Below, one piece after another: positions 12,197 to 64,000 of a stretch of 64,000 bases of DNA (position 1 is its first letter; every line of letters starts with the position of its first letter). The notes beneath the pieces were generated by a model. The model was not told where the DNA came from. It saw nothing but the letters and a program-made list of their open reading frames with translations, and did no database searches. Position numbers and translations under genes: made by a program. This stretch comes from Folioceros fuciformis (Eukaryota): NCBI GenBank assembly GCA_049999805.1, contig JBNGIO010006396.1, positions 123,775 through 187,774 of the forward strand. Reading direction: 5' to 3'.

Positions 12197-13015
12197 AATC
12201 GTGTGCTGTGCATGTACCATACATCTCTGGGACAAGCGCCAGCAACCCATTCCCTAGGGAGGAGAACCACTCTGGCGTTCCTCCCATCAACTATCGCTTC
12301 AAAGGATGATGAAAAAACATCGCCTAGGACACGCATCAGGTTGGAAACCCTACTACACGCCCCAAGACCAATTCATCACAAAGCTGTGCAGCCACCACCC
12401 CATTCCTACTCTCAAGTTCGAGGTAAGCAGGTTCTCCAAAGAAGCCCTTGTGATTCCAGAAGTAGGTTTCTTCTGCCAGCATTCCTCGAGGCTACATCGG
12501 CCCTAGAAATGAGATATAGCAATGTGGAAAACACTCCACAGCATAGCCCCAGCTCGCTGAAGTAGGTTTGAAGCAAATCTTCTGCACAGCACGGGAAGGG
12601 GTATAAATTAACCATCACAGCAACACAGACCGACAGGGCGAGCCAAAACCTAGGGGGTTCTTCCTCCGACCCAATCGATCGTTCTGCTTTTCGGCATGGA
12701 GAAACTCATCCTTGTTTTGGTTGTTTTCCTTCAAGTTTTTTTTATTACTAGAAAAGAGATGAAAAGTCCCATTTCAAGGAACAATCCAAAGAAGCCAAAG
12801 AACAAAAAAAAGTACCCTAAAGGGTTAGGGTTTTGAGTTTGTGTTCAATCTTGTTCAGGTTTTAAAAGGAGCGATCATCCAGGCATTTTGAATTGCATCG
12901 CAGCTGCGAGAATTGCTGGTAAGCAATTTTCGTCACTGCGATGAGATTTCACTTAGGGATTCGATTTGTGAGCATGTTATCAACCCCCTTACTTGGGTAG
13001 CAAAGGGTTGTGCAA

Positions 13016-13600
13016 GTGCCAAACTCCATAAGTATTCTCCCTTGCAAGACGGGCATACTTTCGTCCCCGTGCCAAAGTCCATAAGTATTCTCCCTTGCAA
13101 GACGGGCATACTTTCGTCCCCGTGCCAAACTCCATAAGTATTCTCCCTTGCAAGATGGGCATACTTTCGTCCCCGTGCCATAAGTATTCTCCCTTGCAAG
13201 ATGGGCATACTTTCGTCCCCGTGCCAAACTCCATAAGTATTCTCCCCGTGCCAAACTCCATAAGTATTCTCCCTTGCAAGACGGGCATACTTTCGTCCCC
13301 GTGCCAAACTCCATAAGTATTCTCTCTTGCAAGATGGGCATACTTTCGTCCCCGTGCCAAACTCCATAAGTATTCTCCCTTGCAAGACGGGCATACTTTT
13401 GTCCTCGTGCCAAACTCCATAAGTATTCTCCCTTGCAAGACGGGCATACTTTCGTTACCGTGCCAAACTCCATAAGTATTGTCCCTTGGAAGACGAGCAT
13501 ACTTTCATCCCCATGCTCTTCAAACTTAACTTATGATCCATAAGTATTCTCCCTTGCAATGCAAGATGAGCATACTTTCATTCCCATGCTCTTCAAACTT
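13016..13600. repeat. 53-bp minisatellite, about 10 copies, degenerate at the 3' end, with an internal palindrome
   Basis: Unit gtgccaaactccataagtattctcccttgcaagacgggcatactttcgtcccc starts at 13016, 13069, 13122 and onward; some units carry internal deletions. Confidence 0.95.
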
Positions 13601-13772: not shown

Positions 13773-15459
13773 GGTCTTCTTTCAACGACGCATATCCATC
13801 GCTTTGCAACGAGCATTGGCTAATGTAGGTTTAGAATAGCAGTTTCTTCCGCATCGGTGGTAGGTAAGCTTTTTATTATTCCACATCATTTTGGAGTAGG
13901 TGGTAGTTTTGGAGAATGATATTCGAAGGGGCTAATACCCTTTTGGCCTTTTGGCTCTGCTCGGGTTGACTTTCCATTTCTTTTTCAATAATAAAAAATA
14001 CCCCCCTTTTATAAAAGAAAAAAAAAGATACTAACCCTTCCCAAAAAAAGGGTTTTTCTTCTAGATGTGATCTCATATCTTCTTTCCATCAAATATATAA
14101 TTCTTTATGTGTTATGAAAAGCATAATCTAGGCCATATCCATGACATGAATCTAAGTGCTTGGGTAAAGCTATTGATTTGTGTTCACTAATTCTACGAAT
14201 TATCTTTAATTTAGTTCTTAATGTTAACTAATCTAAGCTGCTTACATTAATTAATATTGATTTTAGTTTGTAGAATTTGGTTAACGATATCCAAGTGGGT
14301 GTGCGAATTTCTTTTAGAATTCTCTTTGCATATTATAATATATTTTCAAGATATTTGTGGTATATGCTAATGCCAATAGGATATTTTCAAAGTATGTCCA
14401 TGTAATGGGTTAGTAAATATACAAACACTTCTTAAAGGAAGCTTATATTTAAGATTATATTAAGAATGTTAAAGCTATTACTACCCTAATTGATGTGTGA
14501 AGGATTCAAAGAGTGTTATGCGAGGGTTTATAAGACCGTAGAACAAGGTTTTAAAATTTATAAGAATGTTGAGCCAGGGTTTTGAGAGGTTGTGTGCGAG
14601 GGTTTTCTTAGATGTAGTGTGCGAGGAGACGACGAGCAAAGGATTTCTTCTAAGAGTAGTGCGCGAGGGCTTTTGAAAGTTGTGTTCAAGGGTTTTAAAG
14701 AGTTGTATGTAAGGGATTCCAAAATTAGATGAGCAATGCGCAAGGGCTCATAAGAGCTACATGTGAGGGGTTGGCAGGTTGCTTTTTTCAGAAGAGGAGG
14801 ATGGAACTTTGTATATGGCAAGAGGTATGAATTACTTTGTTCCTGCGCAATGAGCAATTCACATGTTGGTTACTTATTAAGCACATGCTTGTGCCAAGAC
14901 GTGTATGATGTCCTCTTTCCTTCCCTTCGCATAGCAATTTAAGTGTGTGTCTCTTTATTGGGAGCGTGTTTGTGCCAAAGTGTGTATGATGTCTCTCTTC
15001 TTTCCTTGCATGTCCTATGGAGCTGAGAAGAAGACCTAAAGCAAGTTCTTGTTAGTACGAGAGTTATCATTTTGACATGGTAACAACGTTCAACGAGTTC
15101 CGGAAAAAGATGGATTACTCCGGGTAGCCGGAAAGCCTTGACTGGACTTCATCTGATATAATCTGCTGTAGATGCGTTGAACATGAATAAAGCGTGACTT
15201 TGTCTTTGATTGCTGTGCAAATCCGTTGTGTGCATGGACCAGTGGGTGCTGGAGCCTGTACGTGATATAGCGCTGGGTCGAGTTTGCCACAGACTTTGTT
15301 GGATTCAGTGGAGCAATTGCCAAATTCAGAGACGTGCGACAAATTCGTTTGATTCTCTGAACAATCTAAGAATCTGTTCCACTGGCTGGAGGGACTCGAG
15401 AATTTGTTGGCTTCATGTCTGAAGCAAGCGAATGTCATGCATAGGCTGAGAGCGCGCTC

Positions 15460-18400
15460 ATGGCTGTGGGGAGGGTCGCAATTGAGTCTTGCAGAGGGCA
15501 AGGGGACCCGTTTTGGGGACAATGTGTATGGACCCAACAGCCTGGTGGGTTAACGGGCATTTCAGGAAGAGCTGGCTTTTCAAAGAAGCAATTATGCTCC
15601 AGGGGAAGTCTGGCTGCTGATAGATCCTCCAGCGAGGCTCGGCGGCAGGAGAGGCTGTGGCGACAGTATTTTCGGGACCCAACACGTTGGTGGGATCACA
15701 GGCGAACTAAGAAGAGCCGTAACTCGCCTGATTTCCGGCACAAGCAGTGCCAGGAGGTGCTCTGGTTAAACAGCTTACACAAGCCAGCTTGGGTGGATGG
15801 GGAGCTGGCTGCTCTAGATGGGGACGGCCCTGGCCCTCACGATAAGGGCATGATGGCTGAGACAGTGAGGAAGCTATGTGATCGGGGCCATGTGACTGAG
15901 GCTGTGGAGGCTTTGGAAGCTGCGGTGGAGACGCACAGTTATGTTGCCGTCTCTGTCGTGTATGCTGTCCTAAGGAAATGTGTGCAGAAGAGGGATCTCC
16001 GTCTGGGCAGGCGTGTGCATGCTTGTGCACTGAGAACGGGGTTGCTGAAAGACACTTTCCTGTGCAACAACATCCTACGGATGTATGCTTCCCATGGCAG
16101 GTTGCAGGATGCGGTGGATGTGTTTGAAGCAGTTGTGGAGCCTGATGCCTTCAGTTGGTCGGCCATGATTTCTGCACATGTTAAGTATGGGCAGGACAAG
16201 GAGGCTGTGGAACTCTATCACAGGATGTGCAGGTCGAGTGTTGAGCCGGATGGGCATGTTTTTGTGGCAGCCCTCCAGGCTTGTGCAAGGCGATCGGACT
16301 TGGAATGTGGGCAGCAGGTGCATGCTCATGTGTTGGCGTGTGGTCTTGAGTCTGACTTGTTTGTGTGTAACGGTTTGGTGAACATGTATGCAAAGTGTGG
16401 CAGCATCGAGGAGGCTCGGAGAGTATTTGATGGACTGCTTGAGAAAGATGTGGTGACTTGGAATGCCATGATTGCAGGGTATTCCCAGCAAGGTAGGGGT
16501 CAGGAAGCGCTCTGGGTATATAGTGCTATGCAAGATGAAGGTGTTGCTGTGCCTGATGCTGTGACTTTCGTGAGCCTCCTGCAGGCGTGTGCAAGTGTGG
16601 GCCCTGTGGCTTTTGAGAGGGGGAAGCAGCTTCACGAGCGTATCAGAGAACGAGGACTTCTTCGAGCTGATGTGTTTGTAGGCAACAGTTTGGTGAACAT
16701 GTATGCAAAGTGTGGTAGCTTGGAAGATGCACAGAGCGTGTTTGACGAACTCGATCAGAAAACGGTGGTGACGTGGAATGCAATGATTGCAGGGTATTCA
16801 CAGCAGGGCATGGGGCCGGAAGCCCTTTGTCTCTACGATGCTATGCAGAAAGAAGGCAAGAGCGTACCCGATTCTGTCACGTTTGTGAGCCTCCTGCAGG
16901 CGTGTGTAACCGTGGGCTCTGTGGCATTGGAGAAGGGGAGGCAGCTACATACGCATATCAGGGAACGAGGACACGAGACTGAAGTGTTTGTGGCCAACAG
17001 TTTGGTGAACATGTATGCAAAGTGTGGCAGCTTGGAAGACGCAAAAAGTGTGTTTGGTGGAATGGTTATAAAAGATGTGGTCACGTGGAACACCATGATG
17101 GCAGGGTACTCACAGCAGGGCATGGGGCAGGAAGCCCTTCGTCTCTACAGTGTTATGCAAGCAGACTGCATGGTTGCGCCTGATTCCGTTACATTTGTGT
17201 GCCTCCTGCAGGCATGTGCTGGCGTAGGCACCTTGGCTTTGGAGAAGGGGAAGCAGCTCCATATGCAGATTAAAGCACGAGGACAAGAAGCGTTTGTAGC
17301 CAGCAGTTTGGTGGACATGTATGCAAAGTGTGGCAGCTTGGAAGATGCTCACAGAGTGTTCGATGAATTTGGTAAGAAAGATGTGGTGACGTGGAATGCC
17401 ATGATAACGGGGTATTCCCAAAAGGGCATGGGGCGGGAAGCCCTTCATCTCTACAGTGCTATGCAAGAAGAGGACTGTGTTGTAGCTGATTGTGCAACAT
17501 TTGTCGGCCTCTTGCAGGCATGTGCCAGTGTTGGCTCCACAGGTTTGGAGAAGGGGAAGCAACTTGATTCAGATATTAAAGAGCTGGGTTATGAGAGTGA
17601 TGTACTTGTAGCCAGCAGTTTGGTGAGCATGTATACAAAGTGTGGCAGCTTGGAAGATGCTAAGAGAGTGTTCGATGGATTGGGCCAGAAAGATGTGGTG
17701 ACATGGAATGCTATGATAGCAGGGTATTCCCAGCAGGGTATGGTGCAGGAAGCCTTTAGTCTCCACTGTGCTATGCTAGAGGAAGGCCTGGCTGCACCCA
17801 ATTCGGTATCATTTGTGTCCCTCCTACAAGCATGTGCAAGTGTGGGCAAAGCGGGGTTGGAGAGGGGAAAGCATCTTCATGTGCAAATCAGGGAGCAAGG
17901 GCTTCAAGCTGATGCGTTTGTAGCCAGCAGCTTGGTGAACATGTATGCAAAGTGCGGTAGCTTGGATGAGGCGCAGAGAGTGTTTGATGGACTTGGTCAA
18001 AAGGATGTGTTGACTTGGACTGCCATGATAGCAGGGTATTGCCAGCAAGGGATGGGCCAGGAAGCCCTTTGTCTCTACAGTTCTATGCAAGCCGAAGGTA
18101 TCGCTATACCCGATTCCGTTACATTTGTGTGCCTTCTTCAGGCATGTGCGAACGTGGCAGCAGTATACCTGGGAAGGCAGCTACATGCACAGATTGTGGA
18201 ACAAGGGCTTCAAGCCGATGTCTTCGTAGGCTGCAGTTTAATCAACATGTACGGAAAGTCTGGGAGCATGGTTGAAGCACAGCAGGTTTTTGATGCAATG
18301 CCTGAAAAAGACATCGCCGTCTGGAATGCACTAAGTGCAGGGTACACTTCTCAAGGAGAGAGTGAAGTGGTCTTCGACTTGGTACGGAGAATGAAAGAGC

Positions 18401-19035
18401 AAGGCACACAGCCAAACCACATCACCTTTGTCAGTGTACTAACGGCGTGCAGTCACGCAGGTCTCGTGACCAAGGGGCGGGAGTCCTTCAAGGCTATGAG
18501 CAAACAGTACGGCATTACTCCCACGGAGGACCACTACACATGCATGGTGGATCTCCTTGGCCGAGCCGGGCAGCTGGACGAAGCACTGGGTCTTGTAAGG
18601 ACAATGCCCGTCCCTCCTAGTGCTGCAGTTTGGCACACTCTGCTGGGTGCTTGTCGAAACTGGAGCAACGTGGAGGTCGGACGCTATGCCTTCCATGAAG
18701 CAGTGAAGCTAGACAATGCAGATGCTGCAGCTTACGTGTTGATGTCAAACATATACACGGGTGCCGGGATGAAGGAGCTGGCACAGAAGATACAGATGAG
18801 AAGAAACCGAATCAGGGCATGGAAGCAGCCGGGCCAAAGCTGGTGGACAGACCCCGACGGGCTTGTGCATAGTTTTCTGGTTGGAGACGAGAAGCATACC
18901 GGAAGGCAAGCAAAGCTGAAGCAGAAAGGCAGGCATGTGCCACATCTTGATCTGTCGCAGGCAGACTTATCTGATGACAGACAGGAATACCATTTATGCA
19001 CGCATAAGCAGATGTTTGCTTTAGCAGGCGGATGA
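15460..19035 (+). CDS. PLS-class PPR protein (1191 aa, intronless): N-terminal PDF motif, about 8 PLS triplets, E1/E2, truncated DYW:WW-type domain
   Basis: Repeated VVTWNAMIAGYSQQG / VTFVSLLQACA / SLVNMYAKCGSLEDA motifs; HYTCMVDLLGRAG; AAAYVLMSNIY; KQPGQSWWTD..VHSFLVGD; ends at LCTHKQMFALAGG*. Confidence 0.95.
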   Translation: MAVGRVAIESCRGQGDPFWGQCVWTQQPGGLTGISGRAGFSKKQLCSRGSLAADRSSSEARRQERLWRQYFRDPTRWWDHRRTKKSRNSPDFRHKQCQEVLWLNSLHKPAWVDGELAALDGDGPGPHDKGMMAETVRKLCDRGHVTEAVEALEAAVETHSYVAVSVVYAVLRKCVQKRDLRLGRRVHACALRTGLLKDTFLCNNILRMYASHGRLQDAVDVFEAVVEPDAFSWSAMISAHVKYGQDKEAVELYHRMCRSSVEPDGHVFVAALQACARRSDLECGQQVHAHVLACGLESDLFVCNGLVNMYAKCGSIEEARRVFDGLLEKDVVTWNAMIAGYSQQGRGQEALWVYSAMQDEGVAVPDAVTFVSLLQACASVGPVAFERGKQLHERIRERGLLRADVFVGNSLVNMYAKCGSLEDAQSVFDELDQKTVVTWNAMIAGYSQQGMGPEALCLYDAMQKEGKSVPDSVTFVSLLQACVTVGSVALEKGRQLHTHIRERGHETEVFVANSLVNMYAKCGSLEDAKSVFGGMVIKDVVTWNTMMAGYSQQGMGQEALRLYSVMQADCMVAPDSVTFVCLLQACAGVGTLALEKGKQLHMQIKARGQEAFVASSLVDMYAKCGSLEDAHRVFDEFGKKDVVTWNAMITGYSQKGMGREALHLYSAMQEEDCVVADCATFVGLLQACASVGSTGLEKGKQLDSDIKELGYESDVLVASSLVSMYTKCGSLEDAKRVFDGLGQKDVVTWNAMIAGYSQQGMVQEAFSLHCAMLEEGLAAPNSVSFVSLLQACASVGKAGLERGKHLHVQIREQGLQADAFVASSLVNMYAKCGSLDEAQRVFDGLGQKDVLTWTAMIAGYCQQGMGQEALCLYSSMQAEGIAIPDSVTFVCLLQACANVAAVYLGRQLHAQIVEQGLQADVFVGCSLINMYGKSGSMVEAQQVFDAMPEKDIAVWNALSAGYTSQGESEVVFDLVRRMKEQGTQPNHITFVSVLTACSHAGLVTKGRESFKAMSKQYGITPTEDHYTCMVDLLGRAGQLDEALGLVRTMPVPPSAAVWHTLLGACRNWSNVEVGRYAFHEAVKLDNADAAAYVLMSNIYTGAGMKELAQKIQMRRNRIRAWKQPGQSWWTDPDGLVHSFLVGDEKHTGRQAKLKQKGRHVPHLDLSQADLSDDRQEYHLCTHKQMFALAGG

Positions 19036-19746
19036 TCCGCCTTCAGGGGCAAGAAGACAAGATTAGTTGCAGCCATCTTCTAGGCTTGAGCAGCTCGATC
19101 CAATGACTGCATTTTGGGTTGTGGATGAAAGTGAGCCACCTTCCTCCATGTCCAGGATTCCTTAGGCGTTCAGCCAAAAATACCACATGGAATACCCACG
19201 GAATGCTGTCTATGCACGGATCCCACTTGCAACAACCACTACCTTTGACAGTGGTGTGTGCCATCCCTGGCGGGCACCAGGGGCGCAGTTGAAGTGAAAT
19301 CATGTTTCCCACGAAGGGTTCCACTCATCTCTTCTTCCTGCTTTCATCTGTGGACGGTTCAGTTTCTGCTTCATGTATGTCCCGTCGTTTGAAGAGAACC
19401 TTTTCAACGAATATTTAATTATGATTAGGGGAAGAGAGCACCACACGGCCACTGTAATGCCAGAGTCTGTAGAGGGCAAGGGCCATGAGATGCCGCCCAC
19501 CTAGGACAAGTCGTAGTTTCTTCAACATCCTGGATGTAGACCTTGACGGTAATAGTTTCCGACGGGTCGTGATTTCCTTGCTTTGAAACGATTTGAAAAC
19601 TACGTCCGGCAGGCTTCCTTTGGGCAGAATCTTGTTCGTTTCCCGCGGCTGCTGGGCAGCGATGGAATAGATGGCAGCTCGCAGGGACGGCAGCTGGGTC
19701 GACGAGATCCGGGCCGGGTGAGACGGGTAGCCGCGTCTCCCTGGCG

Positions 19747-22700
19747 ATGGCGGCCCTGCAGGGCAGCTCCCTGCAGCCTGCGTGCGTCGTGCAGGCCTTG
19801 ACGGACTCCGAGGCTCGGAGGAAGGAGCAGGCCAAGAGGTGCACGCCTGGATCGACCAACTCCGGACCCAGGCCGCTGCAGAGCGCGGCAGAGCTGGCCT
19901 CTTCTGCACGGGGCTCGGCAGCCGAGTGCAGCCTCCCGGAGGCCCTGCCCGCCCACTTCAACCCAATTCCGGCCAGAGTCCGCGCAGTGACCTGCTGCGC
20001 CGCGGGGTCTGTGGGCGCGGACCAGACGCGGCCCCGGGGCCAGCTCCCGGGGCTCTCAATCTCGGTGCGGAGCCTGGGGGCCGCGCTCTTCTTCGGGGGC
20101 CTTGCGGGGTTCGCCAAGACGCTCCTGTCCACCCTGCCGCCGGACTTTCTTGCGAGGTGGAAGCAGCTGTTTGCGGAGCAGCCGGCGGAGGAGGCGCAGG
20201 AGGCTGCCGAGCCGCAGCATGGAACTGTGATTTTCGACCGCTACGGCGCGGTGTTGGCCACGGTGGTGGCGGGAGGGTACAGTGGGAAGCAGCGGGATGT
20301 GGCGAAGCCGGCTCGGCAGGCGCTGCTCCGCCCCTGTGACGTCCCGTCGGCGATGTGGCAGGCCGTCGTGGCGTCGGAGGATCGCCGCTTCTTCGAGCAT
20401 CAGGGGATTGATCCTAGAGGGATTTTGAGGGCCGTTTTGTCGCTGGCGACGAGCGGGGGAGGGAGTACTATTACGCAGCAGGTGGTTGTGGGTGGTGGGG
20501 TTTGGGGAATTTCAGGTCTTGTGTGGGTGGGTGCTGTTTGTGCTGAGTTTGTGGGTGCGGCGCAGTTGGTGAAGAATGTGTTTCTTTCGAATGACCGCAA
20601 GTGGTCCAGGAAGCTTGTGGAGATTCTGTTGGCTCTGCTCATCGAGAAGCAGATGTCGAAGTGGGACATTCTTCATCTGTATCTGAACAAGGTAGGTGCT
20701 TGTGCTGGTTTTAATGCTTTGTGGGCTAAACGATGGTTGTGGGTCTTTGTGGGCTTTAGATTCAATTCAGGATGCTCCTGTACTATGTTGGGTGGGCGTG
20801 GTGTAGATATACTGGGGGCATGGAGTGTACGGGATACAGGCTGCGTCTGCACTCTATTTTGGGAAGCATCCGTCCCTTCTTTCGTTGGGGGAATGTGCGA
20901 TGCTTGCTGGGATTATACCTGCGCCTGAGCTCCTCTCTCCGTACCGCGACCCGAGCAGGTGGGGCGGGCTCTGGTTCCAGTGGATGGAAATGACTCTTCT
21001 TTGACTTGTGTCGTGTTGCTGAATAGTTCTGAAGACCGTGTTTTGCAGGGGCAAGAAACCTCAAGCGAGAGCGCTGCGGCGAATGGTTGAGGCTGGATTT
21101 TTGGATGCTGAAACAGCAGCTGCAGCTGTGAACGAGCCGATTGAGCTTGGCACGGAAACAACTGATGACGGCACCTACGGACCCTGGAGAGCCCCCTATT
21201 TTGTCAGTGAGGTGTGCATTGTTCGAGACTTCTTCCACGTGCTCAAATGTGTCGTTGTGTGGATGATGATTTTGTGCCACACGGGCTCACACCGATCTGT
21301 GAAAACGTCGGCAGGTTCTTTATGAATTGACTCAAAAATATGGCCGAGACAAGGTCCTTCGAGGAGGGTTGCAGGTACTTTCATTTTCCTTCTGGATTTG
21401 GTGCTTGCTGCCGTATTCAATCCTTCTGTCTTGGGATGACGAGGAGAACGTCATGCTGCAGGTTCACACAACTTTAGATGCAACAATGCAGGACGTTGCT
21501 GAAAGGGTGATTCGTGACGGTGCAGCTGAGTATGACGATGAGAGAGTGCTTCTAGCTGATCAAGGCGTCGAGAGAGTGTTTGGAAAGTTGGAGGTTCTTT
21601 GGAAGGAACGTGAAGAGAAGGTTGGGAAGGCTATCAAGAATGTTCTGAGAAGGTACAGTGATATTTGTTCGCATGTCTGCATCCGCTCTGCGCTGTATTT
21701 GTACGAGTTTGCCTGTATGACATCCTAAGGCTTGTGTCTGTTAGATTGTTGGTATCACCGCGAAACTAGGCTAACATGCGTTGCAGACAACTGTTGGAAT
21801 GGTGGTTCTAACTGTTTGGAGTTTTTCTAATCCAAACTGTGTCTTGTAGGATGCAAGTGGACACCGCAACGCTCATGAATGCCAGGTGACCCAGCTTCTC
21901 CATGGCCACTGTTATCATCTGCGCTTTTGTGTCTTGGTATCGTTCTGCAAGCTGACAATGTATCTGGGGAGTGCCTCAGGGAGACCTTGGAAGTTGAGGA
22001 GTCGGCCTTGTTGCAAGCAATGAATGAAGCTGCCACCTCAGCTGCTGGAGAATTTTCGAGAATGTGAGTTTCTTTTAAACGAGCTGAGTGATAATGTCCA
22101 CAGTGTATCTTTTCATTCTAACTAATGTTGCCTTCCAACCTGCAGTGAAAATCTCTTGTTAGAGGCACTTGCTCGCTTTCAGGAAGAGTCGAAAGTAGCT
22201 TCTTATGCAAGGTATGGTGCTTTGTTTGTATCAAGGACTGATCATGATCCTGTAGAGATTTGGACGGGTTTAAGTCGTTTGATGTCTACGTTTGAGCATA
22301 TTTTCCGGTTTGATTGCCTGGTTCTCTTTTTTTATTCATGTTGGAGCTCCTGTAATTCACTCAGATTGGAAGGTGCTATGGTTGCCATGGATCCTGAAGA
22401 TGGTGCAGTGCGTGTACTAGTTGGTGGAAGAGATTACTATGAGAGCAACTTCAACCGAGCAACGCAGGTATCATTCGGAATGGGGTTTTTACTTCAGAGT
22501 CCGTGTGTCTCTCTCATTCGGTAACTGAATCCTTTGTGTGGGAATCCCACGGACAGGCTCTACGTCCACCAGGGTCTACTTTCAAACCAGTTGTATACCT
22601 CACAGCCTTGGCAGAAGGCATGTAAGTGGATCGACTGTTTTCAGGAATACTGGCTACTTGCCCTACGTCTCGGATTTGAAAGTTATTGTGGGTCGGTGAG

Positions 22701-59745: not shown

Positions 59746-62700
59746 ATGGCTCTCTGGAGGCCTTCGCTGGAGTCGGAACGGGATCCGTTGTGGGTACATC
59801 ATTCGTGGACCCAACAATGTGGGGACCTGACGGGTGTTCGAGGAAGATCTCCAGCAAGGGTGAGTTCATGTAGTCAGGCGTGGGCGCAGGACGAAGCGGG
59901 GACGTGCAGCACCTGTGCAAGGAGGAGAGCTTGGGCAAGAGGATGTTTGGCTGGGGACAAATCATCCAGCGAATGTCGTAGCCAGGAGAACTTGTGGCAT
60001 CAATTTTTCCTTGACCCCTCACTTTGGTGGGACAACAGAAGAAATAAGAACCGAAGCCTCCGTTCGCCTGACTTCCGGCACAGAGAGTCGCAGGATGCCC
60101 TCTGGCTGAAGAATTTCTATAAGCCAGATTGGGTGGATGGGCAGCTTGCTGCTTGGGATATGAGGATGGGTCGTTCTGTCTTCGACAAGAGGCTGCGGGA
60201 TGGTTCTGACGCTCGCAGGGCTCCAAGTGAACGTGAGGTTGTAACTGCCGAAACAGTGAGGAGGCTATGTGACGAGGATCGTCTGACTGACGCTGTTGAT
60301 GCATTGGAAGTTTTGGTGCGGACGGACAGTTGGATTTCTAAATCTCTGCTTAGCTCTGTTTTGAAGAAATGTATTGTCAGGAAGGATCTTGTTCTGGGTA
60401 GACGTGTCCATGCTTGCACGGTGAAGAAGGGGTACCAAAAAGACACGTTCTTGTGCAACCACATTTTGCGAATGTATTCGTCTCATGGCAGATTGCAAGA
60501 CGCGATGGATGTGTTTGAAGCAATTGCTGAACCTGATGCGTTCACGTGGTCTGCCATAGTTTCTGCCCATGTGAGACATGGGCAAGACAAGCAGGCCATA
60601 GAACTGTACCATCGGATGCGGAGGTCCAGTGTGAAGCCTGATGGGCACGTATTTGTGGCAGCCCTTCAGGCTTGCGCAAGGGGATCCGACTTGAAGTCTG
60701 GGCAGCTGGTGCACGTTGATGTCTTGGCTAGCGGAATTGAGTCTGACCTATTTGTGTGTAACTGCTTGGTGAGCATGTACGCCAAGTGTGGCAGCTTGGA
60801 AGAAGCTCAAGGAGTGTTTGATCGGCTTCGTCGGAAAGATGTGGTGACGTGGAATGCCATGATAGCAGGATATTCCCAGCAGGGTATGGGGCAGGAAGCC
60901 CTTCGTCTGTACGAAGCGATGCAAGAAGAAGGCATGACGGCACCCGACTCTGTGACGTTTGTGTGCCTCCTGAAGGCGTGCGCAAGTGTGGGCTCTCCCG
61001 CTTTGGAGCAGGGGAAGCGTCTTCATTTGCAAATTAAAGCACAGGGACATGATGCTGAGGTGAATGTTGCCAACAGTTTGGTAGACATGTTTGCGAAGTG
61101 TGGCAGCTTGGAAGATGCACAGGGGGTGTTTAACGATCTGGGTCAAAAAGATTTGGTGACCTGGAATGCCTTGATTGCAGGATATGCAAAGCAGGGTATG
61201 GGGCGGGAAGCTCTCCGTCTCTACACTGCCATGCAGGAAGGCGGCTTGTCTGGGCCCAATCCTGTGACATTTGTTTGCCTTCTCCAGGCATGTGCAAGTT
61301 TGGGCACCCCGGCATTGAATTCGGGGAAGCAGCTTCATAGACAAATTAGAGAACAAGGTTATCAGGCTGATTTGGTGGTAGCCAGCAGTTTAGTCAACAT
61401 GTATGGAAAGTGTGGCAGCTTACAGGACGCTTTGAGGGTATTCAACGATCTTGGTCGCAAGAATGTGGTGACATGGACTGCCATGATAGCAGGATATTCC
61501 CAGCAGGGCATGGGGCTAGAGGCCCTTCGTCTTTACAAAGCTATGCAAGAAGAGGGCCTCGCTGTGCCCGATTCCGTAACATTTGTGTGCCTCCTAAAGG
61601 CATGTGCAAGTGTGGGGAGCCTGGCGCTGGAAGAGGGGAAGTATCTTCATTTGCAAATCAGAGAACAGGGATATGAGGCGGATGTAACTGTAGCCAACAG
61701 TTTGGTGAACATGTATGCAAAGTGCGGCAGCCTGGAAGATGCTAGAAGCGTGTTTAATGGAGTTGGAACAAAGGATGTGGTGACATGGACTGCCATGATA
61801 GCAGCATATTCGCAGCAGGGAATGGGAAACGAAGCCCTAAAACTTTACAGAGCTATGATAGGTGAAGGCGTGGCTGTACCTGACTCCGTGACATTTGTAT
61901 ACCTCCTGCAGGCATGTGCAAACGTGGGCAACCTGGCGCTGGCAGAGGGGAAATATCTTCATGTTGAAATCAACGAAGGAGGCTATCAAGCTGATGTGAT
62001 TGTAGCAAACAGTTTGGTGAACATGTATGCAAAGTGTGGCAGCTTGAAGGACGCCCAGAGAGTTTTCGATGGACTTCATCAAAAGGATGTGATGACGTGG
62101 AATATTCTGATAACAGGGTACTGCCAGCACGGTATGGGGCAGGAAGCCCTTGGTCTTCACACGGCTATGCAACAAGAAGGCTTGATTGTTGCCAATCCCG
62201 TGACATTTGTGTCTCTATTGCAGGCTTGTGCAGAGTTGGGCACCCTGGGGTTGGAGAAGGGCAAGCAGATTCATGTTCAAATCACAGAAAGAGGACATCA
62301 AGCTGATATGTTTGTGGCCAACAGTTTGGTAAACATGTATGCAAAGTGTGGAAGCTTGGGAGACGCTCAGCGAGTGTTTGATGAACTTGATCAAAAGGAT
62401 GTAGTGACGTGGAATGCCATGATAACAGGGTATTCTCAGCATGGTATGGGCCAGGAAGCGCTTTTACTGTACAATTCTATGCAAGCAGAAAATCTGACCG
62501 AACCCACCTGTGTGACATTTGTGAGCCTCCTGCAGGCATGTGCAAGCGTTGGCAGTCCAGCATTAGAGAAGGGGAAGCAACTTCATATGCAAATCCAAGA
62601 TAGAGGATATCAAGCTCATGTTTTTGTAGCCAACAGTTTGGTGAACATGTATGCAAAGTGTGGCAGCCTTGAACGTGCTCAGATTGTCTTTGACAGACTC

Positions 62701-64000
62701 CGTGAAAAGGATTTGGTGACCTGGAATACCATGATCGCTGGGTACTCCCAGCAGGGCATGTGTGAGGAAGCCCTCCGTCTCTACAGTGCCATGCAAGAAG
62801 GGGATATGGCTGCACCTGATTCTGTGACGTTTTTGTGCCTCCTGCAGGCATGCGCGTGTGTGGGCCCACAGGCATTGGACAAGGGGAAGCAACTTCATGC
62901 GCTAATCAATGAACAAGGCTTTCAAACGAATGCTTTTGTAGCCAACACGTTGGTGCACATGTATGCGAAATGTGGCAGTTTGCATGATGCTGAAAAAGTG
63001 TTCGATGGACTTGATGAAAAAGATGTGGTGACGTGGAATGTCATGATTGGCGGGTATTCACAGCAAGGCCTGGGGCAGGAAGCCCTTCGTCTCTACAGAA
63101 CTATGCAAGAAGAAGGCACGATTGCACTGGATTCAGTGACATATGTGTGCCTTCTACAGGCATGTGCATCTGTGGGCACCCTGGCCTTTGAGGACGGGAA
63201 GGATCTGCACATGCGAATCAAAGAAGAAGGACATCAAGCAGATGGAGCTATAGCCAATGGCTTGGTGAACATGTATACAAAGTGTGGCAGCTTGGTAGAT
63301 GCTGAGAGAGTGTTCGACGGGCTTGGTCAAAAGGATGTGTTAACATGGAATGTCATGATATCCGGATACACCCAGCAGGGTATGGGGCAGGAAGCCCTGC
63401 GTCTTCTCACTGGTATGCAAGAAGCCATGGCTTTAACCGATTCTGTGACGTATGTGTCCCTCCTGCAGGCATGTGCAAACATAGGCAGCTTGGCATTGGA
63501 TAAGGGGAAGCAGCTTCATGCTCAGATCAAAGAGCAAGGAACTCAGGCTGATATATTTGTCGCCAGCAGTCTCATGAACATGTATGCAAAGTGTGGGAGA
63601 GTGGAAGATGCTCGGACGGTGTTCGATGGCCTTGGTGAAAAAGATGTGGTGGCTTGGACTGCCATGATAGGCGGTTATTCCCAGCAGGGCATGGGGCAGG
63701 AAGCCCTTTCTCTTTACAGTTCTATGCAAGAAGAAGGAATAGCTATACCCGATTCTGTGACGTTTGTTTGCCTCCTGCAGGCGTGTGCAGATGTGGGCAA
63801 CCCGGCACTGGAGATGGGGAAGCATCTTCATAACGAAATCCGAGACCGGGGACATGAAGTTGATAGGTTTGTAGCCAACAGTTTAGTTAACATGTATGCA
63901 AAGTGTGGCAGCTTGGAGGATGCTCAGAGGGTGTTTGACCACATCGCAGAAAAAGATGTTGTGACCTGGAATGCCATTATAGGTGGGTATTCCCAGCAAG
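59746..64000 (+). CDS. Very long PLS-class PPR protein with N-terminal PDF motif; paralogue of 15460-19035; runs past the window end
   Basis: Frame open from ATG 59746 (MALWRPSLESERDPLWVHHSWTQQ) to 64000; KCG motifs recur every ~312 nt from 60784 to 63901. Absent from the ORF track because it has no stop in the window. Confidence 0.93.
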   Translation, partial: MALWRPSLESERDPLWVHHSWTQQCGDLTGVRGRSPARVSSCSQAWAQDEAGTCSTCARRRAWARGCLAGDKSSSECRSQENLWHQFFLDPSLWWDNRRNKNRSLRSPDFRHRESQDALWLKNFYKPDWVDGQLAAWDMRMGRSVFDKRLRDGSDARRAPSEREVVTAETVRRLCDEDRLTDAVDALEVLVRTDSWISKSLLSSVLKKCIVRKDLVLGRRVHACTVKKGYQKDTFLCNHILRMYSSHGRLQDAMDVFEAIAEPDAFTWSAIVSAHVRHGQDKQAIELYHRMRRSSVKPDGHVFVAALQACARGSDLKSGQLVHVDVLASGIESDLFVCNCLVSMYAKCGSLEEAQGVFDRLRRKDVVTWNAMIAGYSQQGMGQEALRLYEAMQEEGMTAPDSVTFVCLLKACASVGSPALEQGKRLHLQIKAQGHDAEVNVANSLVDMFAKCGSLEDAQGVFNDLGQKDLVTWNALIAGYAKQGMGREALRLYTAMQEGGLSGPNPVTFVCLLQACASLGTPALNSGKQLHRQIREQGYQADLVVASSLVNMYGKCGSLQDALRVFNDLGRKNVVTWTAMIAGYSQQGMGLEALRLYKAMQEEGLAVPDSVTFVCLLKACASVGSLALEEGKYLHLQIREQGYEADVTVANSLVNMYAKCGSLEDARSVFNGVGTKDVVTWTAMIAAYSQQGMGNEALKLYRAMIGEGVAVPDSVTFVYLLQACANVGNLALAEGKYLHVEINEGGYQADVIVANSLVNMYAKCGSLKDAQRVFDGLHQKDVMTWNILITGYCQHGMGQEALGLHTAMQQEGLIVANPVTFVSLLQACAELGTLGLEKGKQIHVQITERGHQADMFVANSLVNMYAKCGSLGDAQRVFDELDQKDVVTWNAMITGYSQHGMGQEALLLYNSMQAENLTEPTCVTFVSLLQACASVGSPALEKGKQLHMQIQDRGYQAHVFVANSLVNMYAKCGSLERAQIVFDRLREKDLVTWNTMIAGYSQQGMCEEALRLYSAMQEGDMAAPDSVTFLCLLQACACVGPQALDKGKQLHALINEQGFQTNAFVANTLVHMYAKCGSLHDAEKVFDGLDEKDVVTWNVMIGGYSQQGLGQEALRLYRTMQEEGTIALDSVTYVCLLQACASVGTLAFEDGKDLHMRIKEEGHQADGAIANGLVNMYTKCGSLVDAERVFDGLGQKDVLTWNVMISGYTQQGMGQEALRLLTGMQEAMALTDSVTYVSLLQACANIGSLALDKGKQLHAQIKEQGTQADIFVASSLMNMYAKCGRVEDARTVFDGLGEKDVVAWTAMIGGYSQQGMGQEALSLYSSMQEEGIAIPDSVTFVCLLQACADVGNPALEMGKHLHNEIRDRGHEVDRFVANSLVNMYAKCGSLEDAQRVFDHIAEKDVVTWNAIIGGYSQQ

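Follow-up and report, generated by a model that had tools for sequence, protein, structure and literature searches.

Two PPR genes with an N-terminal PDF motif

The analysed stretch of DNA, referred to as the window, comprises 64,000 nucleotides of Folioceros fuciformis (GCA_049999805.1, contig JBNGIO010006396.1, positions 123,775-187,774 of the forward strand) and carries on its plus strand two paralogous genes whose products combine a PDF motif with an array of PPR repeats. Gene 1 is an uninterrupted open reading frame of 1191 residues (P0001, 15460..19035), in which an N-terminal region is followed by the PDF motif, a linker, a PLS-type PPR array, an E motif and a short tail. Beginning at the first in-frame ATG, the frame stays open across the motif and into the PPR array, with an upstream in-frame stop located at 15442-15444 and the stop-to-stop frame beginning at 15445. 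The N-terminal 56 residues (15460..15627), which precede the motif, constitute a possible organellar presequence, with a composition of R5 K2 D2 E1 S6 G10 that includes three acidic residues. The core of the PDF motif encompasses residues 66-116 (15655..15807), within an HMM match that spans 15622-15819, and a linker rich in Gly, Pro and Asp (residues 121-135, 15820..15864) leads from there to the first PPR helices.

The repeat array extends over 15865..18660 and is matched by the Pfam models PPR_2 (E 4e-129), PPR (E 2e-112) and PPR_1 (E 2e-69). Its number of about 27 repeats is an estimate from a length of 932 residues at about 35 residues per repeat, and its assignment to the PLS class is based on the E motif and on repeats read by eye. 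The E motif itself (residues 1068-1128, 18661..18843) is recognized as PF20431, for which its score of 41.1 bits exceeds the cutoff of 27.3 (E 2.1e-10). The remaining 63 residues and the stop codon (18844..19035) resemble, by eye, an E2-like segment and the first part only of a DYW domain. Consistent with this short tail, we found no Pfam match to the DYW cytidine deaminase (PF14432) in gene 1, whose reading frame stops 63 residues past the E motif. We also considered a frameshifted DYW remainder located 3' of the gene, which was discarded after no deaminase signature was recognized by eye in three downstream frames. The first-pass annotation had described the protein as editing-type, which is appropriate with respect to its PLS repeats and E motif but does not extend to a deaminase domain. 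Gene 1 alone is not a complete editing enzyme; its product may depend on a partner or the gene may be decaying.

Sequence from the run X1, which may itself be the sample of origin of the window, covers parts of gene 1. One contig of 1210 nucleotides spans 15189-16398 with 0 differences and includes the 5' region of the gene, the motif and the first PPRs, and a second one matches 18817-19540, likewise with 0 differences, over the 3' end. Cover by X1 is absent over 14300-15188 and no single X1 contig spans the full gene.

Although a single fusion gene had been implied for this region, which is borne out by gene 1, the window contains two of them. Gene 2 (59746..63999) is a paralogous PLS-PPR open reading frame with 1418 visible residues that continues past the end of the window, so that its C-terminus, with any E motif or DYW domain, falls beyond it. 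The core of its PDF motif is located at residues 83-134 (59992..60147; HMM match span 59959-60159) and its repeats are matched by PPR_2 with an E-value of 2e-182. A Pfam scan detected neither PF00436 nor any other OB match in gene 1, where residues 1-147 stay blank even at E<=1, and no SSB/OB domain in the visible 1418 residues of gene 2. Pfam being silent on the region of gene 1 that holds the motif, it is therefore without a model for PDF. Because they are devoid of an SSB/OB domain, the proteins of the window are not members of the OSB family.

Relationship of the motif to OSB proteins

To place the motif, we have searched 1.84 billion representative sequences with a HMMER profile made of the two copies of the window, which retrieved 712 proteins at E<=1e-3. 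A Pfam SSB domain is found in 36 of the best 150 of these 712 matches. In 35 of the 36, all copies of the motif are located C-terminal to the SSB domain, which is the published layout of OSB proteins, and it is from this architecture and the published description, not from a database name, that we refer to the SSB-plus-motif matches as OSB. For a reverse test, a second HMM was constructed exclusively from 76 motif copies of these 36 proteins, which had themselves first been retrieved with the window's own motif profile. With this model, the motif of gene 1 scores 76.6 bits (E 5e-20) and that of gene 2 scores 71.1 bits (E 3e-18), both at Z=1e6. Applied to the entire 64 kb in six frames at E<=10, the model identifies two sites only, which are the motifs of gene 1 and gene 2. 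An OSB-type PDF motif at 15655..15807, ahead of a PLS-class PPR array, had already been claimed in the first-pass annotation together with a suggestion to compare it with an HMM; the peptide quoted there corresponds exactly to these coordinates, the profile from OSB-architecture copies recovers it, and residues 66-116 are followed by the repeats and the E motif as described.

The relationship is also manifested in individual positions. All columns that are invariant or near-invariant in an alignment of 37 sequences are kept in gene 1 (W67, F71, P74, W77, W78, D79, R81, K84, P90, D91, F92, H94, L101, W102, P109, W111, V112). The name-giving Pro-Asp-Phe corresponds to P90-D91-F92 of gene 1, with Pro and Phe being invariant and Asp conserved in at least 90% of the 37 sequences. 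Window proteins and OSB proteins thus have in common a motif of about 50 residues with the Pro-Asp-Phe, WWD-x-R, LW and P-x-WV positions, and in both its copy number varies, from one to five in published OSBs and from one to three in PDF-PPR proteins. The two groups differ in the context of the motif, which in OSBs is found C-terminal to a central SSB/OB-fold-like domain, whereas in the window proteins the SSB domain is missing and the motif precedes the PPRs.

Searches of other kinds contributed little. Word-index protein searches with a 69-residue segment and with residues 50-135 of P0001 both returned zero matches, and since the exhaustive HMMER search gave 712 proteins, these blank results reflect the index. 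A word-index search with the alignment A2 was dominated by its PPR columns, with the motif found in only 2 of 11 matches, and a search of the ESM Atlas gave no usable match to the motif. Judged by its sequence, the segment is almost certainly a genuine PDF domain, the module of about 50 residues known from the plant organellar ssDNA-binding (OSB) proteins.

Constraint and predicted structure

In a comparison of gene 1 with gene 2, we find a dN/dS of about 0.13 over the 51 codons of the PDF motif, of 0.20 over the first 195 PPR codons and of 0.28 over the presequence region, values that are rough, as the dS of about 1.7 between the paralogues is near saturation. The presequence regions are 51% identical and the linkers 47%, with the linker being longer in gene 2. 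By these numbers, the constraint on the motif is at least equal to that on the PPR repeats, and together with the continuous reading frame they indicate a PDF domain that is translated and under purifying selection.

In the AlphaFold model of gene 1, the motif region contains a helix (residues 52-72), which starts before the motif and includes the first seven motif positions, two strands (residues 77-79 and 92-94) and a second helix (residues 111-120). The overall pLDDT of the model is 83.8, with values of about 89-95 for residues 60-119 and of 57-62 for the linker. The PDF domain is thus modelled as a compact small alpha/beta unit, with a probably flexible linker between it and the PPR array. 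In a sequence search of the PDB, no match to the motif profile had an E-value under 0.059, the best match in a Foldseek search of the predicted fold against the PDB had an E-value of 6.7, and in a wide VIA-align comparison the best Z-score was 4.3 with an rmsd of 3.2 over 60 residues, with none of 48,161 chains reaching Z>=5. The comparison of the model with solved structures consequently gives no known fold, from which it does not follow that the fold is new, and the predicted structure lends no independent support to nucleic-acid binding.

Recurrence of the motif in other PPR proteins

PPR domains are present in 11 of the best 150 of the 712 profile matches, each with one to three PDF copies that are always N-terminal. 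Besides gene 1 and gene 2, we have identified 12 PPR proteins in which the parts follow one another in the same way, and in all 14 PPR proteins examined the motif precedes the array on its N-terminal side. One of them, P0152 from the lycophyte Diphasiastrum complanatum, combines three PDF copies with PPR, E and DYW domains. When compared to PLS-class PPR editing factors of the E, E+ and DYW types, gene 1 exhibits the same PLS array and E motif, and whereas it is without a DYW match, the deaminase domain is full in its PDF-bearing relatives P0089, P0113 and P0152. Conserved as a protein and recurrent in other PPR proteins, the motif is therefore not a one-gene oddity, and the sequences indicate that PLS-class (editing-type) PPR proteins have here acquired a PDF domain at their N-terminus. 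Full-text literature searches, in which subscription journals are sparsely covered, found no description of the PDF motif in PPR proteins.

On a tree of the motif, which is based on few alignment columns, the labels PPR and non-PPR change 7 times, compared to a mean of 18.2 after shuffling, and 0 of 500 shuffles were as low. The tree thus places PPR-borne copies together, and both copies of the window are part of a clade of eight PPR-only copies with an SH-aLRT of 95. The PPR-borne copies may have one origin or more than one.

Other combinations were observed as well. P0162 from Kingdonia uniflora contains SSB, PDF and PPR domains and looks like an OSB gene that is merged with a neighbouring PPR gene, and P0043 contains three PDF copies and a kinesin.

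Discussion

PLS-PPR proteins are usually pictured as a repeat array with a targeting peptide in front and an E/DYW region behind, a view that a conserved N-terminal PDF domain alters for some members of the family. Two reviews of PPR proteins, examined for extra domains and for domains at the N-terminus, name no N-terminal accessory domain for the PLS class and make no mention of PDF, and the added domains listed in one of them are RRM, LAGLIDADG, SMR, NYN, CBS and SAP, of which RRM, SMR and NYN are tied to the P-class. PPR4 sets a precedent in that its N-terminal RRM, a domain for general nucleic-acid binding, stands ahead of a PPR array; it differs as a P-class protein involved in rps12 trans-splicing, and its RRM is unrelated in sequence to PDF. 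A survey of OSB proteins from 2026 required both SSB and PDF domains, and PDF-PPR proteins would therefore go unlisted. Expression constructs routinely drop everything before the first repeat, as in the methods description of a moss factor.

Considering what is known of the domain, a role of PDF in PPR proteins in binding single-stranded nucleic acid appears probable. In the mature protein, the domain would act as an accessory and sequence-independent binder, whose conserved Trp and Phe residues might stack on bases while Arg and Lys would contact the backbone. Reviews state that AtOSB1 can bind ssDNA through its PDF motif alone, and that OSB1 and OSB2 favour ssDNA over dsDNA or RNA. A tether to nucleoids or R-loops, or added non-specific affinity, had been suggested in the first-pass annotation, and these proposals draw on what is reported for the two Arabidopsis proteins. 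Because this preference is the only reported biochemistry of the domain, our leading reading, which we hold tentatively, is that of a specific tether to ssDNA of the nucleoid. The PDF domain would keep the PPR protein on the ssDNA of a transcribing nucleoid, where the repeat array could encounter the nascent RNA on site. RNA-maturation proteins are contained in maize nucleoid proteomes according to a review, where this is taken as co-transcriptional maturation. An observation against a need for the N-terminus concerns a moss editing factor that was cloned with its N-terminus removed, down to 14 residues before its first PPR, and that still edits in E. coli. N-terminal parts are therefore not generally needed for catalysis, and this factor may or may not have a PDF domain.

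Several other explanations have to be weighed. The domain could instead bind ssRNA and not DNA, just 5' of the recognized sequence, and add non-specific affinity to the array, which we regard as possible, if doubtful. Its invariable location N-terminal to the array would suit such a role, and so would the account of moss PPR56, according to which N-terminal PPRs are less conserved and generally weaker in target selectivity. The conserved aromatic and basic residues would fit either single strand. MORF/RIP proteins raise the RNA affinity of seed-plant PLS proteins. Non-seed plants are not known to have these helpers, which we count in favour of binding to RNA. The reported preference of OSB1 and OSB2 for ssDNA over RNA argues against it. 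Alternatively, PDF might be a protein-protein module that oligomerizes or docks to OSB, Whirly, RNA polymerase or a trans-acting DYW protein. AtOSB2 is reported in a review as a tetramer, which implies self-association of OSB proteins, and gene 1, having no deaminase, would need a partner to edit. Yet the same residues are conserved in OSB and PPR contexts, which suggests the same ligand, and the review text on the OSB2 tetramer does not attribute it to a particular part of the protein. We consider this option decidedly unlikely.

It is highly improbable, in our view, that the motif is non-functional or removed, either by cleavage with the presequence, by residing in a 5' leader upstream of a later Met (residue 131 in gene 1), or as a relic. 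While Met codons follow the motif in both genes and the C-terminus of gene 1 is truncated, such a loss is difficult to reconcile with the low dN/dS of the motif, with the retention in gene 1 of all residues conserved across the family, with the location of OSB-architecture copies C-terminal to SSB and far from any presequence, and with up to three tandem copies ahead of PPR arrays. An artefact of assembly or gene models, where a motif from a separate upstream gene or exon would be only apparently joined, is hardly credible. Merged models such as P0162 and P0043 do exist, but both window genes, which are separate, have a single open frame that leads without stop or gap from the motif to the repeats, 12 further PPR proteins share the order of parts, and the X1 contig crosses the junction without a difference, even if X1 may be the source of the window.

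Returning to the tether on ssDNA, its strongest version would view PDF-PPR proteins as old and recurrent editing factors of non-seed plants, anchored on the ssDNA of a transcribing nucleoid in a transcription bubble or R-loop, a proposal that as a whole we rate as rather unlikely. If true, tethering would make editing co-transcriptional and would provide a built-in alternative to the trans-acting helpers of seed plants. A possible functional analogue, by our own analogy, are the MORF/RIP proteins of seed-plant editosomes, described in a review as accessories that raise the RNA affinity of PLS proteins; they differ from PDF in being separate polypeptides, unrelated in fold, whose binding to the PPR array occurs in trans. 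As a bolder extension, DNA-anchored DYW proteins could conceivably act now and then on the displaced DNA strand.

The presence of the PDF domain in PPR proteins widens its range beyond OSB proteins and helps to decipher a domain without a solved structure, and designer PPR editors may gain from it a building block of natural origin. For PLS-PPR proteins, the PDF domain would confer a second binding mode, which suggests a route to concentrate editing factors at nucleoids or to hold RNA more tightly.

Domain organization of the PDF-PPR proteins

Gene 1, an ORF of 1191 aa on the forward strand (15460..19035, protein P0001), encodes a PLS-class PPR protein with an E motif but without a DYW match in Pfam. 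Its stop-to-stop frame begins at 15445 and the ATG at 15460 is thus the first in-frame start, barring an upstream exon. The first-pass annotation had described an editing-type protein. Pfam identifies an extended array of PPR repeats (PPR_2, E 4e-129) and an E motif (aa 1068-1128, 41.1 bits against a cutoff of 27.3), and a DYW deaminase was not found in the same search. The protein stops 63 aa past the E motif and, by eye, its C-terminus (18844-19035) contains a DYW domain that is reduced to its first part, with the deaminase signature absent, also by eye, from the three frames downstream. Gene 1 may represent a factor of the E+ type or else a copy in decay. At its other end, residues 1-147 show no Pfam match even at E≤1. 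This region holds the proposed PDF motif, whose core (aa 66-116, 15655-15807, forward strand) has exactly the position of the peptide singled out in the first-pass annotation.

A six-frame pattern search revealed the same motif in gene 2, a second PLS-PPR ORF that starts at 59746 on the same strand and continues beyond the end of the window, with 1418 aa visible and the motif at aa 83-134 (59992-60147). The motif segments of both genes are 61% identical over 64-65 aligned residues. Nearby ORFs match ABC-transporter, transglycosylase, CLASP_N and CCCH zinc-finger families in Pfam, and this content, two runs of N and a G+C fraction of 48.7% fit a draft nuclear plant genome. The transglycosylase ORF, which adjoins gene 1 (19747-20925, forward strand), is of the penicillin-binding-protein type (PF00912, E 2e-30). 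Genes of this kind, serving plastid peptidoglycan, exist in non-seed plants. Just upstream of gene 1, near-identical repeated peptides from three overlapping ORFs in different frames (12933-13500, reverse strand) indicate a tandem DNA repeat.

Identity and distribution of the motif

Since Pfam has no model of the PDF motif, its identity was tested by profile in forward and reverse direction. A profile built from the two window copies, searched against 1.84 billion cluster representatives, identified 712 proteins with E≤1e-3, of which 227 reach ≤1e-10 and 20 reach ≤1e-30. In a Pfam scan of the best 150 of these 712 matches (36 proteins at E≤1e-3, 114 at E≤1e-5), 36 contain an SSB domain, 11 PPR families and one a kinesin motor, while the other 102 show either no match or unrelated families below threshold. 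Of these 36 SSB proteins, 35 have all their motif copies C-terminal of the SSB domain, P0002 being the exception. Conversely, an HMM constructed exclusively from the 76 motif copies of the 36 SSB proteins recognizes gene 1 with 76.6 bits (E 5e-20, Z=1e6) and gene 2 with 71.1 bits, and in a six-frame scan of the whole window at E≤10 it detects these two PPR sites only. In an alignment of 37 sequences, W67, F71, P74, W77, D79, R81, K84, P90, F92 and W111 are invariant and W78, D91, H94, L101, W102, P109 and V112 at least 90% conserved, and gene 1 retains all of these positions. The segment is a PDF domain of the OSB type, as had been claimed, where the equation of the SSB-plus-motif proteins with OSB rests on their architecture and the published description.

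Some matches show other arrangements. Five proteins (P0002, P0003, P0005, P0007 and P0009) consist almost entirely of 8 to 13 PDF copies, well above the maximum of five that a 2026 OSB survey reports; in four of them an SSB domain was not found with Pfam, and P0002 shows a weak match near its C-terminus. P0119 and P0128, of about 185 aa, carry the motif C-terminally behind a region without Pfam match and look like neither OSB nor PPR proteins.

The PDF domain recurs in PPR proteins. The 11 PPR-bearing proteins among the best 150 of 712 matches (P0004, P0038, P0081, P0089, P0095, P0097, P0113, P0141, P0143, P0150 and P0151) contain one to three copies each, always before the repeats, and eight short matches (P0094, P0105, P0107, P0110, P0129, P0134, P0136 and P0147) resemble, by eye, PLS-PPR N-termini after the motif. 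An E motif or a DYW domain is found in P0004, P0081, P0089, P0113, P0151 and in P0152, a hypothetical protein from the lycophyte Diphasiastrum complanatum, where three PDF copies (aa 109-173, 191-252 and 273-330) are followed by PPR repeats, an E motif and a DYW domain that is complete. P0152 came from a word-index search, in which the motif was not found in nine of the 11 matches (ferns, Selaginella and three more). P0162 from the angiosperm Kingdonia uniflora, the other match of that search with the motif, combines SSB, one PDF copy, PPR and an E motif, probably owing to an annotation that joined an OSB gene to the PPR gene next to it. In P0043 (1526 aa), three PDF copies (aa 189-387) precede a kinesin motor domain, either in a merged gene model or in a real fusion.

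We calculated a tree of 89 motif copies, 66 from 35 SSB proteins, 20 from 14 PPR proteins and the three from the kinesin, leaving out P0002, copies short of HMM positions 16-60 and those scoring above 1e-5. The PPR label needs seven changes on this tree, a value reached in none of 500 shuffles, whose mean is 18.2. Eight PPR-only copies form a clade (SH-aLRT 95) containing both window copies, P0089, the three of P0004, P0095 and P0143; the kinesin copies group with those of OSB type. With 66 columns, most forks lack resolution, and the tree is compatible with one or several origins of the fusion.

Predicted structure, constraint and potential role

An AlphaFold2 model of aa 50-135, based on a 37-row alignment (mean pLDDT 83.8, pTM 0.66), predicts a helix at aa 52-72, which runs from residues before the motif into the first seven of the motif itself, strands at aa 77-79 (the WWD position) and 92-94, a helix at aa 111-120 and a tail with pLDDT of 57-62. 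According to the model, the domain would form a compact unit attached to a linker of low confidence, which is probably flexible. A convincing counterpart was found neither with Foldseek (best E 6.7) nor in a wide structural search (best Z 4.3, with none of 48,161 chains at Z≥5), and no sequence relative of the motif was found in the PDB.

The PDF domain is translated under constraint and placed as a module in the PPR protein. The reading frame is unbroken in both genes and a Nei-Gojobori comparison of the two paralogues yielded a dN/dS of 0.13 for the 51 codons of the motif core (dN 0.22, dS 1.7, near saturation), 0.20 for 195 codons at the start of the PPR array and 0.28 for 53 codons before the motif; the linker behind it is least conserved (47% identity, with differing lengths). 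It is thus highly improbable that the motif is removed or non-functional. An artefact appears less likely still: a 1210 nt contig of sequencing run X1, whose RNA status is a guess and which may be the source sample, joins 5' region, motif and first repeats and equals 15189-16398 with no differences. A contig of run X4, whose organism code D is unlike that of the best-matching run, aligns to the motif region (15540-15783) with about 90% identity (24 differences in 246 nt), which may indicate that a different organism possesses a gene closely related to gene 1.

As for its role, we consider it likely that the domain would act as accessory, sequence-independent single-strand binder. We favour this assignment since, according to reviews, AtOSB1 can bind ssDNA through its PDF motif alone, with its OB fold non-binding, and OSB1 and OSB2 prefer ssDNA over dsDNA or RNA, since Trp/Phe and Arg/Lys dominate the conserved positions and would suit base stacking and contacts with a single-strand backbone, and since, according to a review, nucleoid proteomes contain RNA-maturation proteins, with co-transcriptional maturation deduced there. 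A tether of the PPR protein to nucleoid ssDNA is a tentative version of this role, towards which we lean over a somewhat less likely clamp gripping RNA 5' of the PPR footprint; a protein-docking module is unlikely. The main points against are the missing deaminase of gene 1 and a moss editing factor described as active in E. coli without its N-terminus.

Comparison with known domain architectures

Gene 1 shares the PDF module with OSB proteins but lacks their SSB domain in Pfam and is therefore not an OSB. One PPR review lists RRM, LAGLIDADG, SMR, NYN, CBS and SAP as added domains, tying RRM, SMR and NYN to the P-class; the PPR reviews searched for added or N-terminal domains name none for the PLS-class and never mention PDF, and the OSB survey retained only proteins with both OB-like and PDF domains. 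In the full-text literature searched, we found no PPR protein described as carrying a PDF motif. Within that literature, PDF-PPR is a new domain architecture, and it is a firm observation that recurs and lends itself to direct tests.
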